20,000 nt of DNA from Scenedesmus sp. PABB004 (Eukaryota), in contig JABVCE010000035.1 of assembly GCA_014905635.1 (NCBI GenBank), positions 294,675-314,674 of the forward strand, read 5' to 3'. A program made the position numbers and the translations under genes. The notes under the pieces were generated by a model that was not told the DNA's origin, made no database searches, and was given only the letters and a program-made list of their open reading frames with translations. This document shows, piece after piece, positions 3,585 to 20,000 of the stretch. How positions within the stretch are numbered: position 1 is the stretch's first letter; every line of letters starts with the position of its first letter.

Positions 3585-5585
3585 ATGGCGCCCACGCCGC
3601 GCGCGGGGCTGGGCCTGCTGGCCCTCGCCAGCGTGCTCCAGGTGCCTACAGCTGCTCCGCGCGACTGCGCCCGGCGGCGCGGCGCCTGCGCCGCCCTGCA
3701 GCGTCCACGGCAGCGACCACCGCTGCTGCCGCGCTGCTGCTCTCACGCTGCCGCCGCGGCCGCCGCAGCTGGCCGCCGCGGCTGCTCTCACGCTGCCGCC
3801 GCCGCCGCCGCAGCTGGCCGCCGCGGCGCCGCCCGTGAGCCAGGTGCTCCGTGACAACGGCTTCAGCCTGTGGCTGCGCCTGATGGAGCCGGTGGGCTTC
3901 CTGCCCGACGAGCACATCCCGGCGGGCCTGCCGGTGACGCTGCTGGCGCCGACCGACAAGGTGCGGTGTGGGCGCGGCGGCGGCTGCTCCTCAGCGGCAG
4001 CGGCGGCCGCGGGCACGTCACCCCGTGCCCACTGCGCCGCGCCGCGCCGCGCCGCGCGCGGCGCGTCGCCAGGCCGTGACCGAGTTTGCGCGTGCGATGT
4101 CGCTGAGCGTCGACGAGCTCGCGCGCACGCCCGCGCTCGTGGACACGCTGCTGTCCTACTCGCTGCTCCCCGGCGCCGCGCTCACCGGCAGCAAGCTCGC
4201 GGCCGGCGGGCCGCCGCGCCTCGCGCGCAGCGCCAACCCCGCGTTCTCGGTCGAGCTCTTCCGCGCGCCGGGCGGCGGGCTCGCCGCGACGGACGTGCAG
4301 GGCAACGTCGCGGCGCTGAGCGGCGGCTGGGACGCCGCCGACCGCGTGCGCGTCTACGGCGCGAGCCGCGTGCTGCTCAACGGCGAGAGCCCCGCGCCGC
4401 CGCGCGCGCTGCCGCCCCGCGCCGCTGCACACGCCCGCGCCGCCCGTCACTCGCCCGCACCCGCCCCACACCCGCACCGCCGCCGCCGCGCAGGCGACGT
4501 GTTCACCAGCCCCGCCGCCTTCCTGACCTTTTACCCCCGCTTCAGCGCCCTCGCGGCGCTCACCAAGCGCGTGGGCCTGTGGCCCACGCTGCAGCGGAGT
4601 GACCTCGACCGCACGCTCTTTGCGCCGAGCAACGCCGCGCTGCGCGCCGACGGCGGCGCGGCGGCCGCGGCCGAGGCGGGCGGCCTGAGCGCGCTGCTGC
4701 GCTACCACGTCGTGCAGGTGCGCCGCGGCGGCGGGGGCCTTCACGGCGCGCGCGCGGCGCGCCCCGGCGCGCGGAGGAGCGCTGCGCGCCGCGCGGGGGT
4801 GCCCACGAGCGCCCCCCGCCGCGCCGCGCCGCAGGGCTCCCGCCGCGTGCCGTACGGCTTCAAGGCCGGCGTGGCCGTGCCGACGCTGCTCGCGGGCAAC
4901 ACGCTCTCGCTGCGCTACGGCACCAAGCGCGTCGCCGTCGCGGGGACCAACGGCTCCCTCGTGCTCACGACCGCCGACGTCGTGCCGGAGGCGGGCTCGC
5001 CCGGCAAGCCGGCGCGCATCGTGATGGCCAACGTCTTCGCCGGCCGGGTGAGAGGCCTAGGGCCGCGCCGCGCCGCGCCGCGCCGCGCGCCGCACCCCGC
5101 CGCGCCGGCGCGCCGCCGACCGCCGGCCGCCCCGCCCTGCCGCCGGCCGCCGCCGTGGCCGCGCGCTGCCGCCGCAGGCGACCATCCACGGCATTGACCG
5201 CGTGCTGCTCCCGCGGCCCCAGGCCGGCCGCCGCCTGCTCTGGCGCGGCGGCTTTGCGCGCTACGGCGGCGGCGGCGGCTTCGCGGGCGGCTTTGACGGC
5301 CGCTGGCGCGGCGGTGCGGACGCGTTCCGCGCCCCCGCCTACTGGACCACGCACGACCCCAACTCGCGCTGGGGGCTGCAGTACGCGGCCGCGCGCGCGG
5401 CGGCGGCGGGCGCGGGCTACGGCGAGTCGTGGGGCGCGTGGGGGCCGCGCATCCCCGCGCCGATCGGCGTGCCCGTGCCCGCCGTGGCCGACGCCGGGGA
5501 CTACAACACCTACGACACCAACTACGACGCGCCCGGGGAGCTCAAGTCGCTCGAGACCGAGGACAACGGCTGCTACAACTGCTGA
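3585..5585 (+). CDS. Secreted protein with two fasciclin (FAS1) domains and a C-terminal extension. Exons 3585-3641, 3769(or 3814)-3960, 4073-4382, 4494-4717, 4835-5047, 5178-5585
   Basis: Signal-peptide-like start MAPTPRAGLGLLALASVLQLAAAA. FAS1 H1 motifs TLLAPTDKA and TLFAPSNAA, YH motif LLRYHVV, and H2 motifs VYGASRVL and IHGIDRVLLP. Splice phases are consistent. Confidence 0.9.
3736..3825 (+). repeat. 45-bp tandem duplication spanning an intron 3' end
   Basis: 3736-3780 and 3781-3825 are both gctgctctcacgctgccgccgc(g/c)gccgccgcagctggccgccgcg, with one mismatch. Confidence 0.95.
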
Positions 5586-5663: not shown

Positions 5664-5668
5664 TTACA
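5664..5668 (-). terminator. TGTAA polyadenylation signal of the membrin gene
   Basis: TTACA on + reads TGTAA on -, about 100 nt past the membrin stop. UGUAA is the established chlorophyte poly(A) signal. Confidence 0.6.
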
Positions 5669-5765
5669 ACGGCTGCGGTTCCGGGTGGTTGTGATGCAAC
5701 AAAATGCGCGCGCGCCGCGGCGAGGGGCTGCAGTGTTTCAGCAGCGTCGGCGGCGCCGCGCGGGC

Positions 5766-6700
5766 CTAGAACCAGGCCCACCAGATGAGCCCGATCGTCA
5801 GCAGCACGGTCGCGACCTGCGCGCCGCCGCGGCGCAGGCGTCAACAGGGTCAGCAGGGGCCGCTCTGCCGCCCTGCTGCGCCGCCCTGCCGCTGCTCTGC
5901 CGCGCCGCCGCTGCTCTGCTGCGCCGCGCCGCGCCGCCGCGCCGCCGCACCATGCCGCCGACCGCGATGTACGCGTCGGTGCGGTGCCGGCGCTCAATCA
6001 TCTTGAGCACGCTCTCGCCCAGGCCGACGCTGTTTATGACGTCCAGCACCTTGGTCTGCGCCGCCTTGATGCGCTCCCGGTTGGCCGACATGCCGGCGAG
6101 TATGCTCGTGCCCTGCTCGCGCCGCGCCGCGGGGCGCGCGGTCACCGGCGCGGCGGTCGAGTGGCGCCGCGGCCGGGCGCCTGGGCGGCCGCCGCCGCCG
6201 GCGCCGCCGCGCGAGCGCCGCGCGCCTGCTCAAACATCTCCCCGAGGTAACGGCGGCTGCGGCCGATGTGCCCCGCGACCGCGGCCTCCTCGTCCATCTC
6301 GTCCTTGACGCGCCGCCCCGCCTCGGCGCGCGCGAGCAGCTCGTCGCGGTCCGCCGCCTCGCGCTGGCGCAGCGCCTGGCGGCCGCCGAAGCGCTCGAGC
6401 GAGGTGCGCAGGAAGTCAGCCTCCTCCGACACCTGCTCCACCTTCCTGCGCGGCGGTCGTCGCGGCGGACGACGCCTCCGCAACCGGGGGCCGCGTCGCC
6501 GCCGCCGCCGCTGCCGCTAGCTGCTGCGGGGCCCCCGCGTGCGCCGCGCACGCGCCTCTTCCAGACGTCGTGCTTGGCCGTCTGCTGCCGCACCAGCGCC
6601 ATGCGCCAGCTGCCGTCCAGCTCTCTGCTGGTCCGCTGCGGGCGGCGGGGAGGGGGGCGGGGGGGCGGGGGAGGCTGGGGCCAGCGCGCGCCTCGCCGCC

Positions 6701-7350: not shown

Positions 7351-9620
7351 ATGGAGGGCTGCTCTCCCGGCGGCCGCCGGGAGCGCGGTTTCGCGGCCGC
7401 CGCGCGCGCCGCCAAGCTGGCCGCGCTGGCCGCGCAGCAGCGCGGCGGCGCCGGCAGCGGCGGCGGCGGCGCCGGCGGCGCGAGCCCCCGCGCGCGCGGC
7501 GGCGGCGGCGGCGGCGGCGGCCGCGCGCCGCCCGGTGTCGCTGTCGGCGGCGCTCGCGGCGGCGCCGCAGCACGCCGACGGCTACAAGGTCGCGGCGGTC
7601 GAGCGCCGGCTCACCGCGCTCGATGAGCTGCCGGAGCGCCTGCGGTCAGCGGAGGTCGTGTACCTCAGCAAGAATTCCCTGGCCAGCCTCGACGGCGTGC
7701 AGCAGTTTGCGCGCCTGCGCGTGCTGTCGGCGGCCGACAACCTGCTGCGCGACTTTGACGGCGCGCTGCAGGCGCGCACGCGGGGGCGGGGACCGCCGCG
7801 CGCTGGCCGCAGCGCCCTGCCGCGGCGGCGCGGTGCACGGCGTGCGCTGCGCGCTGCACGCTGCGTGCTGAACGGGCACCCGCCAACCACCGCCCGCGGC
7901 CGACTGACCGCCACGGCCGACCACCGACCGCCGCGGCCGCGCCGCGCAGCCGCTCGTGGAGGGCTGCCCGCGCCTGCAGGTCGTGAGCTTTGAGCGCAAC
8001 CCGGTCACCGCGCTGCCCAACTATCGTGCCCGCGTCATCGCCGCGCTGCCGGGGCTGCAGATGCTCGACGGCGAGGGCGTGTCCGCGTCCGACCGGCGCG
8101 CCGCCGCGGCGGCGCTGCAGCAGGAGGGCGCCGCGATGGCGTGCATGCTGACCAACGCGTGCATGGCCCACAAGCTCGCGCGCGCCGCGGAGCTGCTGCA
8201 GCTCCACAGCGAGCTGCGCGCCGCGCTGTTCGGCGCGCGCGCCGCGGCGCGGGGCCTGCTGCCCGCGCGCATTCCGCTCGACATCATCAAGCTGCTCCGC
8301 ATGTGGGACTACGAGGGCGGCCTGAGCCCGGCGGTGAGCGGCGGCTGCGACGACGTACACGCACGCGCTCGAGCGCCGCCGCGCGCGGTTTGCAGTGCCG
8401 CCACGCCGCGCCCGCCGCCCGCCGCGGCGCAGGAGCGGCGCGCGATCAGCGGCGCGCTGACGCGTGAGGTCGTGCGCGTGCACCGCCGGCTGGCGGCGGC
8501 CGCGTCGCAGCTGCGCGGCGCCGCGCAGCTGCCCGCGCTGGAGTCGTGGGGCGCCGCGTTCTCGCAGGTGGGGCACGCCGGCCGCAGCGGCGGCGGGCCA
8601 GCCGCAGCCACGCGCACGCCGCCGGGGCTGACGCACGCACGCCGCGCCGCCGCCGCGCCGGTGCGCGCGCCGCCGCGCAGGTCATGCTGGCGCAGCAGCG
8701 CACGGTGGTGCAGCTGGTGGAGCTGGTCAGTGGCCTCAACGAGGAGGCGGCGCGCGTCATCGCCACGCTCACCGGCCAGCCCCCGCAGCAGCGCGGCGCG
8801 GCGGCGGCCGCGGACGCGGCAGACGAGGCGGAGCAGCAGCTCGCGGCGGAGCGGTGAGCCGCACGCCGGCCGGCCGCGCGCTCGCGCCCCGCCACGCACG
8901 GCTGGCTGTACCAACGGCCGCCCCGCCGCCGTTGCTGCCGCCGCCGCTGCCCTCACTGCACAGTGAGGCGCTGATCATCGATCTGCGGGATGCGGCGCTG
9001 GAGCTCGCGGGCGTGCTGACCGCGCCCAGCGGCAGCGCGGCGCAGCAGCTGGCGGCCGCGGGCGGCGACGGCGCGCTGACCAGCACCTGCAGCCAGCCGT
9101 GCACGCCGCAGCGGACGGCGGCCGCGGGGGAGCAGACTGCTGCTGCTGCGCCCGAGCCTGAGCAGCAGGCGCCGTCGCCGGCAGCATCACCGGCCAGGTC
9201 GCCCGCACAGCGGCTGCCAGGGCCGGACGGCCTGCGGCTGCGGCCGGCCCGCAGCAGGACCCCAGGCGGCGGCGCGGCAGCAGCGGCCGCGCAGCCGCGC
9301 CAGCTGCCGGCACCGCCCGCCTGGCAGCGGCAGGAGGAGCAGGCTCAGGAGCAGGGCAGACCCTGCAGCTCGGGCTCGCCCCAGCCGCGCCCGCTCAGCC
9401 CCACGGCGCGGCGGCTGCTCCGGGGCGCCGCGGCTGCGCAGCGAGAGCAGCTGGAGCGGGAGCTGGAGCTGGAGCCGGAGCCCCGGCCTCCCTACTATGC
9501 AGCAGCTGGCGCGCAGGCAGGCAGCGAGGGCGGTGCCAGCTGGGAGCTGCCCGAGGGATGCGGCTGGCCCGAGCAGCGCTGGTCGGAGACAGAGGAGGAG
9601 CAGCCGCCGCCGCCGCCGCC

Positions 9621-17568: not shown

Positions 17569-17932
17569 GGCGCGCGGCGCGGCGCGGCGCGTGGCGCGGC
17601 GCGGCGCCCGCGCGCACCGCCGCCATGCCGCCCCAGCCGCCCTCGGCCTCGCCGGCCTCCCAGGTGCCGTCCCAGTCGCGGTCCTCGTCGGTCAGCGCCG
17701 GCGGCTTGTAGCACAGGCTCCGCGCGATGCGCAGCGGCACGGCGTTGTTCTTCTTGCGCTTGCGCTTGGCCGCGTCGCCGCCGGCCGCGTCGTCGCCGGG
17801 CTCGGCAAAGTCGACCGCGTCGTCCGCGCCGCCGCGCCGCCGCTTCTTGTGGCGCGGCCCGCCCTCCGCGTCGCGGCCGAGGCGCTTGCGGTGCTTCTTC
17901 GCGGCCTTGCGGGCGATGTAGTCCTGCCCCAT
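13967..17932 (-). CDS. DEAD-box RNA helicase, probably nucleolar. Exons 17932-17618, 17448-17307, 17189-16183, 16054-15929, 15750-15628, 15233-15066, 14925-13967, with an apparent frameshift near 14476
   Basis: Q motif GHAEPTPIQ, motif I AEPGSGKT, Ia PSRELAQQ, Ib [54 protein letters not shown]. Both termini are Lys/Arg-rich. Six GT-AG introns with consistent phase. Confidence 0.95.
15346..15390 (-). repeat. CT-rich polypyrimidine tract in helicase intron 5 (GA-rich on +)
   Basis: agagtgagggagagagggagagagagggacggacaaaagggagaa on +. On the sense strand it lies upstream of the branch-like AACTGAC. Confidence 0.7.
16420..16461 (-). repeat. (CAG)14 poly-Gln insert in the helicase core
   Basis: (CTG)14 on +, located between motifs II and III. 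Confidence 0.9.
17534..17566 (+). repeat. G33 homopolymer in helicase intron 1
   Basis: 33 consecutive G, read directly. Confidence 0.95.
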
Positions 17933-18750
17933 GGCGCCGCGGCGGCCCGCCGCTGCTGCCGCGCGCGCCGCGCGGCTGCCGGCGCGCGCCGCGGGCCGGG
18001 AGCGGGCGCAGTGGGTGGCAGGCGGCGAGCGCGCTGCCGGGAGAGCGGCCGGCGAGCGAGCAGGGCGCGGCGCGCGTGGGCGGCGGCTGCGGGCGGCGGC
18101 GCGCGGCGGCGGCCGGGCCGGGCCGGCTGCTGCTGGGGGCGCGGCCCCGCGCGGGTCGCGGGTGCGGATGCGTGGAGTGGCGGCGCACGCGGAGGCGAGG
18201 CTGCGGCGAGCGGCAGCAGCGGCGCGCTGGGCCCTGCGCCGCCGCCGGCACGCCGATGCCCTGCTTCCTGCTCGCCGCCCGGGCGCACCGCACTCTGCTG
18301 CGTGAGATCTCGCGTGGAGACCGTCGCCGCCATCGCAGGCGCCGCGAGCTGAGCAGCAGCCGCGCTCGGCGGCAGGCGAGGCCGGGCGGCACAGGTGCGG
18401 GGCGTGGGGATGCTCGCGGCGAGCAGCGACGCCAGCGCGAGCGAATGCGCGATCCGGGGCACGCCCCCGGCCGCAGCAGAGATGGCCAGCGGGGGCCGCG
18501 CCTGCCCGCGCCGAGCGCGGCTCATTGGGGCGCCGCAGCGCGGCCAGGCGTGGCGCGCCGCGGTCAGGCCCGGCAGCGCTGCCGGGCCCGTGCCGGCGGC
18601 GCCTGGCCAGCGGGCGGCGGCGCCGCGGCTGCCGGCGCTGCTGCTGCCCGCTGCGCGGGCGGCGGCCGGCCGCGTCCGCCTCTCTCGCGCCCTCACGCCC
18701 GCGCCTGCCGCGCTCCGCAGGCGGGAGCAGCAGCGGGCGGCGGCGCCGCG

Positions 18751-20000
18751 ATGCCGCTGCTGCCGTGGGACTCGCTGTTCCTGGCCGGCTTTGCCTACAG
18801 CGGCTATCGCACGCTCGGGCGGTGGCTGAAGTACACCGGCGACACCGCCAAGGCCCAGTCCGGTGCGGGGACGGCAGCGCGGCGCGGCCGCGGCAGCCGC
18901 GCGGCGCGACCGCGGCGGCGGCGGCGCGGCGGCGGCGGCGCGGCGGCGGCGAGGGCGCCGGCGACGCCGGCGCGCCCGCCGCTCGCGCCCGCCGCCGCGT
19001 CAGATGCCGGGTACCTGGAGGGCTTCACCGAGTGGCTGGCCGAGGCGGCGACCGCGGGCGAGCGCGGCCGCGCCGGCCCCGGCAAGGGCGCCGACGCGAG
19101 CGGCAGGCGCACCTCTGGCGCGACTGGGCGGGGCTGAAGACCAAGCAGCGCATCGCGCTGGTCACCGAGATGCAGAAGGTGGGTGCCGCCCTGCGCCCCA
19201 CGCGCGCGGGCGGGGGGCGCCCAGCCGCTGCGCCGCCGCAGCGCCGCGCGCCGGGCGCCGGCGGCCGCAGCAGAGCTAGCAGCGCCGCCGCCGACTCCCG
19301 CCGCGTCCCCCGCGTCCGCCGCGGCGCCCACAGGTGCTGGAGTGGACGGGGCAGGACGAGGCGCTCCGCCTGGTCAAGAAGCACCGCGGCAAGCCTGGGC
19401 GTCGCTGCCGCACGGCGCGAAGAAGGCGCTGCTCGTCGCGGCGGACCAGCTCGACTGGAGCTTCGTGTCGGACATGGTCGCGGTGAGCGGAGCGGACGGC
19501 GCGCGCTGCGTCCGCTGCCAGCTGCTGGCGGGGGCTCGGCGCCGCGCGCGGCACCGCGGCGGGCTGGAGGATGGCTTACAAATTGCAATAATCCGAACTC
19601 ACGCGGGTGGACTGTATTCGTACGCTGACAGCCCGCCGCCGCGCTCCCGCTGCGCGGCGGGCCTGCGCGTGCGCGCGCTGCTGCGCTGCTCACGCGCCCG
19701 CCCGCGCGCCGCGCGCGCCGCCGCGCCGCGCGCCCGCAGGAGGGCGGCGCCGCAGCGCGCGCCGCGTGCCTGTGGCAGGTGAACGAGCCCGTCCTGCCCT
19801 GTCGGCTGAGCCGAGCCTCGCCGAGCTCCTGCTCGAGGAGTGCGCGACCTGCAGTCACTGACGGCGAGCGGGACCACCGCGGCGAGCGCGCTGCTCGCGG
19901 GGCAGCAGGCCGCGGTCATCGCGGCGCTCGCGCCGGCGCAGCGCCTCGGCGTGCTCGAGGCGCGGCGCAAGCTGGAGCTGCTGCGCGAGGCGGCGCAGGG
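18751..20000 (+). CDS. Uncharacterised protein and snoRNA host gene (3' partial). Exons 18751-18862, 19004-19178, 19334-19482, 19779-beyond end; probable 5' UTR intron 18395-18720
   Basis: Clear splice sites (TCCG|gtgcgg, AAG|gtgggt, GCG|gtgagc, ggcag|GTG). A coherent protein MPLLPWDSLFLAGFAYSGYRTLGRWLKY...AHLWRDWAGLKTKQRIALVTEMQKVLEW...DWSFVSDMVAVNEPVL... needs four single-G restorations. No family recognised. Confidence 0.7.
19556..19639 (+). ncRNA. Intronic dual-guide box C/D snoRNA
   Basis: Perfect 11-bp terminal stem (19556-19566 with 19629-19639), C-like box AGGATGG 19568-19574, D' CCGA 19593-19596 and D CTGA 19625-19628. Both guides are complementary to conserved rRNA segments recalled from memory. 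Confidence 0.85.

Follow-up and report, generated by a model that had tools for sequence, protein, structure and literature searches.

A probable intronic dual-guide box C/D snoRNA family in chlorophyte algae

A compact AT-rich island interrupts an otherwise GC-dominated algal sequence. We analysed a 20,000-nt stretch of DNA from Scenedesmus sp. PABB004 (contig JABVCE010000035.1, positions 294,675–314,674 of the forward strand), called the window throughout. Its GC content is 79.9%, and five 40-nt stretches fall below 55% GC. The lowest spans 19553–19628 at 45%, in agreement with a preliminary description of this DNA that had drawn attention to an AT-rich island there. A second low-GC island, at 5664–5705 (52.5%), contains GTGATGC and a run of A and sits beside an inverted repeat, GGAACCGCCGCGGCAGCCGG / CCGGCTGCGGTTCC.

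The principal island holds the elements of a dual-guide box C/D snoRNA on the plus strand, ordered C – guide – D' – C' – guide – D and enclosed by a terminal stem. The 5' arm of the stem, GCGGCGGGCTG (RNA GCGGCGGGCUG), occupies 19556–19566 and pairs perfectly with the 3' arm, CAGCCCGCCGC, at 19629–19639. Inside the 5' arm lies a C box variant, AGGAUGG (DNA AGGATGG; 19568–19574), recognized by alignment with three homologues. It is followed by the D' guide AATTGCAATAAT (RNA AAUUGCAAUAAU; 19581–19592), the complement of 18S AUUAUUGCAAUU, and by the D' box CCGA (19593–19596), which the homologues carry as CUGA, CCGA or CAGA. The second half opens with a C'-like box, GGGUGGA (19605–19611; GUGUGGA, AUGUGGA or AUGUUGA in the homologues), one base 5' of the D guide. 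The latter, TGTATTCGTAC (RNA UGUAUUCGUAC; 19613–19623), is the complement of LSU GUACGAAUACA and is separated by one spacer G from the D box CUGA (19625–19628), invariant in all five aligned copies. Spacers measure 18 nt from C to D' and 13 nt from C' to D. Judged by its position, GGGUGGA would act as the C' box in this copy; degenerate internal D' and C' boxes are common in box C/D snoRNAs. The preliminary description had listed the C-like, D' and D boxes and a perfect 11-bp inverted repeat flanking them, and each string is present where it was placed. The box order, spacings and fifth-nucleotide positions likewise read as it had given them, and the architecture is kept in three green-algal homologues.

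The 11-bp stem is not by itself beyond chance. Perfect 11-bp inverted repeats with 40–100 nt loops number 31 11-mer pairs in the window, compared with a mean of 20 and a maximum of 39 in 100 Markov controls. In the minimum-energy fold the stem closes the AT-rich island, and the folding energy is mildly better than that of shuffled sequences (z of −2.4 for 96 nt and −1.6 for 101 nt). What makes the stem count as evidence is its position right against the boxes and its retention in relatives.

Codon-position GC periodicity and splice motifs place the candidate in a probable host intron of 372 nt (19483–19854, plus strand). An earlier reading had drawn this intron as 19483–19778 (296 nt). Its 5' end is plausible, the GT at 19483 following a complete codon, but its 3' end does not fit the downstream frame: with an end at 19778 the next exon is read in a frame that lacks codon periodicity, whereas the acceptor CTGCAG at 19854 fits the periodic downstream frame (from about 19840). 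The 3' boundary is probably 19854. With either acceptor, the candidate is intronic and in sense orientation.

Codon-position GC further delineates coding exons at about 18751–18830, 19060–19170, 19290–19375, 19380–19482 and from about 19855. Within 19290–19482 the reading frame switches near 19375, running ...VLEWTGQDEALRLVKKHRGKP in one frame and then WASLPHGAKKALLVAADQLDWSFVSDMVA in another, and the junction leaves too little space for an ordinary intron; the switch could reflect a single-base error in the assembly, a genuine frameshift or an intron of very small size. The two halves of this segment resemble a SANT/Myb-type W-spaced repeat, and Pfam gave no match to them. A Pfam search of five open reading frame pieces of the host gene in the window returned no families, and tblastx between the window's host gene and the homologue loci described below gave only low-complexity noise. 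The minus-strand neighbour had been described as a probable nucleolar helicase. It is a DEAD-box helicase on that strand, with relatives that sources name DDX5/DBP2/RH20-like and best named matches in Chlamydomonas sp. UWO 241, Chlorella sorokiniana and Chlamydomonas eustigma, which mark the source as a green alga; the label nucleolar found no support. Over 18700–20000, the freshwater metagenome X1 (0.05 of words) yielded one 170-nt DNA contig covering 19413–19582 with two differences, the rest being short GC-rich pieces of long unrelated contigs.

Both guides are perfect complements of eukaryotic rRNA. As reference we used the rRNA of a eukaryote contaminating a prokaryotic assembly, an organism other than the window's alga. 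The D' guide pairs with 18S over 12 nt, or 13 with the first base of the box, in the eukaryotic rDNA contig G003:C179, and the D guide pairs over 11 nt with the LSU genes of loci L016 and L017. Both targets fall within the single contig G003:C179, and both complements end beside their box, D' or D. Assembly G003, labelled Hyphomicrobiales (loci L006 and L012–L020), has at least eight contigs with eukaryotic 5.8S and rDNA units, a substantial eukaryotic contamination.

The 18S target recurs across eukaryotic contigs. We scanned prokaryotic assemblies for the complement of the D' guide followed, after a gap, by a universal 18S primer sequence, and obtained 10 contigs, all of which Rfam assigns to SSU_rRNA_eukarya. 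G-ATTATTGCAATT-ATTA stands at the equivalent place in all ten, the 12-mer itself being required by the pattern. The complementarity to a green-algal 18S segment proposed in the preliminary description recurs in the 10 eukaryotic 18S contigs and in G003:C179. For the LSU, GTACGAATACA is present in contigs C9 and C179 of G003, which places the complement of the D guide in real eukaryotic LSU as had been proposed; that segment, described there as conserved, is a hairpin loop with a covarying 3' strand and is not invariant. Viral contigs scanned for the 18S and LSU target contexts gave no loci for either, and one match from pattern searches in 10 assemblies was set aside as a chance match outside rRNA.

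The rule of the fifth nucleotide assigns one candidate methylation site to each guide. Box C/D snoRNAs direct 2'-O-methylation (Nm) to the target nucleotide paired with the fifth guide position upstream of D or D'. The 18S target corresponds to about 1580–1591 of the Rfam SSU model, comprising a hairpin loop and the strand 5' of it, with the U at 1584 as the predicted site. The LSU target corresponds to 2737–2747 of the Rfam LSU model, covering the last part of a 7-nt loop together with the 3' strand of a covarying hairpin; here the predicted site is C 2740.

Such complementarity is rare among shuffled guides. Shuffles of the 12-nt D' guide matched the 5,797-nt rRNA span in 117 of 200,000 trials and those of the 11-nt D guide in 291 of 200,000; the product of the two frequencies is about 1e-6. 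Across both strands of the whole window, only 19 12-mers match the span. The longest of the other complements that we considered, a perfect 16-nt match to the reference rDNA at 6593–6608 (about 0.05 expected), has no C/D boxes nearby, falls in a variable LSU region of an unrelated reference and is probably due to chance. Complements at 9150–9163, 17626–17638 and 5014–5027 (minus strand) have no adjacent C/D boxes and were also set aside as chance.

A metagenome scan revealed three green-algal homologues, L021, L022 and L023. The scan pattern comprised both guides and box D, so that 25 bases are conserved by construction. L021 lies on a contig from a brine metagenome (54% GC), L022 has 63.5% GC, and L023 lies on a 58-kb contig with 61% GC. 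Contamination by the window's own organism is ruled out by these GC contents of 54–64% and by different host genes and flanks. Beyond the pattern, all three have CUGG and then AUGAUGC on the 5' side, a D' box of the form NNGA straight after the first guide, a C' element (GUGGAC or GUUGAC) immediately 5' of the D guide, and CAG immediately 3' of box D. Spacer lengths vary among the copies through insertions and deletions, which rules out a conserved coding exon.

The terminal stems differ in sequence and still pair. In register, the window pairs at 11 of 11 positions and L023 at 10 of 11, including one G-U; L022 forms 10 bp with a 2-nt bulge, and L021 forms 3 bp followed by an internal loop and an outer helix. 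Among only five copies, 6 of 11 pairs are altered on both sides, and 72.7% of stem cells are paired in register versus 25–55% when the partner is slid (five sequences). The homologues do not fold more stably than their shuffles (z of −0.2 to −0.7). A covariance model built from four algal copies, with the window left out, found one match in the window, on the plus strand at 19555–19638, scoring 64.2 bits (rough E, 3e-13).

The homologues occupy a different host gene from the window copy. In all three algae the snoRNA lies in an intron of a diaminopimelate epimerase gene, between exons ending ...PIKV and beginning ...ELDL..LGPK, and the copies are clustered there. Intronic clustering is the usual layout of algal snoRNAs. 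The host exon of L023 is 92% identical to Chlamydomonas reinhardtii CHLRE_05g237400v5 and to proteins of Gonium, Tetrabaena and Volvox. These matches indicate that the L023 alga is chlorophycean, and the identity to CHLRE_05g237400v5 makes an orthologue of the snoRNA in C. reinhardtii likely. With diaminopimelate epimerase as host in three algae and another gene in the window, the snoRNA has exchanged its host gene in the course of chlorophyte evolution.

Two further snoRNAs accompany family members in these introns. L022 carries a tandem paralogue in the same intron (L022:5148–5227, minus strand) that shares the C box and D' guide and differs in its D guide, CAAACUACCA followed by CUGA; by its sequence it would be an isoform with a new specificity. 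In L023, the diaminopimelate epimerase intron that houses the family copy also contains, some 190 nt upstream of it, a second box C/D snoRNA (L023:5170–5261, minus strand). This second snoRNA scores 22.6 bits against the family model and has a different D' guide, AAACCAUGAUAGGGCAAAAU, preceding CUGA. Its D guide, CUGUAUUCGUACUG, addresses the LSU hairpin that is also the target of the family, pointing to a U two nucleotides 5' of the C. We take this U to be the site of yeast snR51 and human SNORD41.

The window copy deviates from the family in its C and C' boxes. AGGAUGG agrees with RUGAUGA at five of seven positions, keeping the G-A-U-G core and deviating at positions 2 and 7, compared with six of seven for the AUGAUGC of the three homologues. 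From family to window, AUGAUGC becomes AGGAUGG and RUGUGGA becomes GGGUGGA, with the same U-to-G change at position 2 of both boxes. Position 2 is the flipped-out base of the kink-turn, a motif thought to be nearly invariant. The roles of the C/D bases in sheared, U-U and G-C pairs are established, and the window copy retains each base involved: G-A for the sheared pairs, U for the U-U pair, and G for the G-C pair with box D. Compared with the AUGAUGC of the family, its C box is degraded.

How the expressed RNA would act follows the standard box C/D scheme. After splicing of the host pre-mRNA, trimming of the intron would stop at the terminal stem. AGGAUGG and CUGA, as the C/D pair, and GGGUGGA and CCGA, as the C'/D' pair, would each form a kink-turn-type motif to which Snu13, Nop56/Nop58 and fibrillarin would bind. 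The D' guide would then pair with the 18S hairpin AUUAUUGCAAUU and direct a 2'-O-methyl group to the fifth target nucleotide, U 1584 of the SSU model, and the D guide would pair with the LSU hairpin GUACGAAUACA and direct methylation of C 2740 of the LSU model. We infer the expression, processing, protein binding and both methylations of the window snoRNA from these features.

Taken together, the locus 19556–19639 is, with high probability, a genuine intronic dual-guide box C/D snoRNA gene, belonging to a family with copies in several chlorophyte algae. We weighed three other accounts. That the island is merely a functionless AT-rich hairpin, fallen by chance into an intron, would fit the abundance of 11-bp inverted repeats in the window (31 against a control mean of 20) and the weak folding z-scores, but we give it next to no credence: two independent rRNA complements, both perfect, stand at box-defined positions (joint shuffle frequency about 1e-6), and three other algae carry homologues built in the same way. 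Loss of function in this one copy deserves more weight and is nonetheless unlikely. In such a copy the U-to-G change at position 2 of C and C' would stop Snu13 binding, the RNA would be degraded with the intron, and a canonical copy would reside elsewhere. Consistent with decay, AUGAUGC in the three homologues stands against AGGAUGG here, the C' element shows the same substitution, the family model gives the window copy its lowest score (64 bits versus 82–97), and paralogous copies occur in other algae, two of them in L022. Against decay, the copy has kept its two guides, D box, GA cores and spacings intact; no other family member has a terminal stem as long or as perfect, and searching the 20-kb window with the covariance model gave no second copy. 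A 24-nt AT-rich guide pair free of constraint should also erode quickly at 80% GC. We take the window copy to be functional because its AT-rich guides are untouched in a genome otherwise pushed to that composition.

The remaining account grants an expressed C/D snoRNA and denies one or both guides a methylating role, casting them as a folding chaperone for pre-rRNA or directing them to other RNA targets; we consider this very improbable. In its favour, neither predicted position is methylated in Arabidopsis (PMC8053127), each target is part of a hairpin with a stem that differs from species to species, and the D' and C' boxes are degenerate. The duplexes argue otherwise, being perfect over at least 11 bp and set in canonical register beside D' and D. 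Two nucleotides from the predicted C, the same LSU hairpin is also addressed by the second L023 snoRNA, a pattern that a methylation hot spot would be expected to show, and Arabidopsis SnoR68 methylates U2736 within the same segment (PMC8053127, PMC5122169). For a methylating snoRNA we offer, tentatively, a fuller reading: the family may mark two nucleotides that bear no Nm in Arabidopsis, the 18S hairpin U and the LSU loop C, perhaps specifically in chlorophytes; its snoRNP may work with G at position 2 of C and C'; and GC pressure may have reshaped the motif, possibly compensated by a terminal stem that, at 11 bp, is unusually long.

The family is an addition to the box C/D catalogue, an ordinary kind of gene absent from Rfam. 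It enlarges the small green-algal snoRNA catalogue by an unlisted family and predicts two rRNA methylation sites without counterpart in land-plant maps. To our knowledge, both sites are also unmodified in yeast and human. The same snoRNA is housed in different host genes across algae, and in extremely GC-rich genomes intronic AT-rich islands offer a practical way of locating constrained guide RNAs. The C and C' boxes, each with G at position 2, provide a natural test of the sequence needs of the kink-turn protein. The general understanding of snoRNAs is unchanged by the finding.

Rfam holds no model of this family. At the gathering threshold the whole window has no match, and with E up to 10 the interval 19400–19800 has one unrelated lncRNA match only, in line with the initial impression that the guide pair belongs to no named family. 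Neither the window copy nor the homologues match any Rfam plant snoRNA model. The L023 copy aligns with SNORD12/SNORD106 (RF00581) in its terminal stem and in the generic boxes C, D', C' and D, but at 23.2 bits versus a gathering score of 43 (E 1.2) and with no similarity in the guides; the window copy does not match. We therefore rejected L023 as a SNORD12 member, its score being below gathering and its likeness limited to generic boxes.

Land-plant snoRNAs reach the same LSU segment in other registers. The Arabidopsis map comprises 111 Nm (PMC8053127, Table 1), and neither predicted site is among them, the nearest being 25S U2736 (SnoR68) and 18S A1579. SnoR68, which guides 25S Um2736 (PMC8053127), is a box C/D snoRNA whose D guide, ...GGTTCGTATTCG before CTGA (PMC5122169), overlaps the LSU segment. 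Its register lies four nucleotides further 3', on a U and not the C, its other guide differs, and it has no detectable sequence homology to the window copy. Taking the SnoR68 register as given, the predicted LSU C would be position 2732 of Arabidopsis 25S. Beta vulgaris snoR18b-2 has TTGTATTCGTACTG before CTGA in its D guide, including the 10-mer of the window's D guide (PMC5122169). In this register the guide points to the U that lies 2 nt to the 5' side of the C; the 5' half of the RNA is unrelated, and snoR18b-2 is a single variant of a land-plant family.

Published snoRNA collections contain few traces of the guides. Plant snoRNA supplements, in the parts available, lack the guide strings except for that one Beta vulgaris variant. 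No 8-mer of either guide occurs in the C. reinhardtii sequences listed in the accessible part of the PMC5122169 supplement. Both guides are likewise not found in the portion of the Ostreococcus tauri snoRNA supplement covered, where sequences are line-wrapped and a match could be missed. The Arabidopsis RiboMeth supplement also lacks the guide strings, and a full-text literature search for them gave unrelated papers only among the matches listed. Chen et al. (2008, Genetics 179:21) are said to have described intronic, clustered box C/D snoRNA genes in C. reinhardtii, a chlorophycean. The family resembles those clusters in being intronic, clustered and of the box C/D class, and it may already be listed among them.
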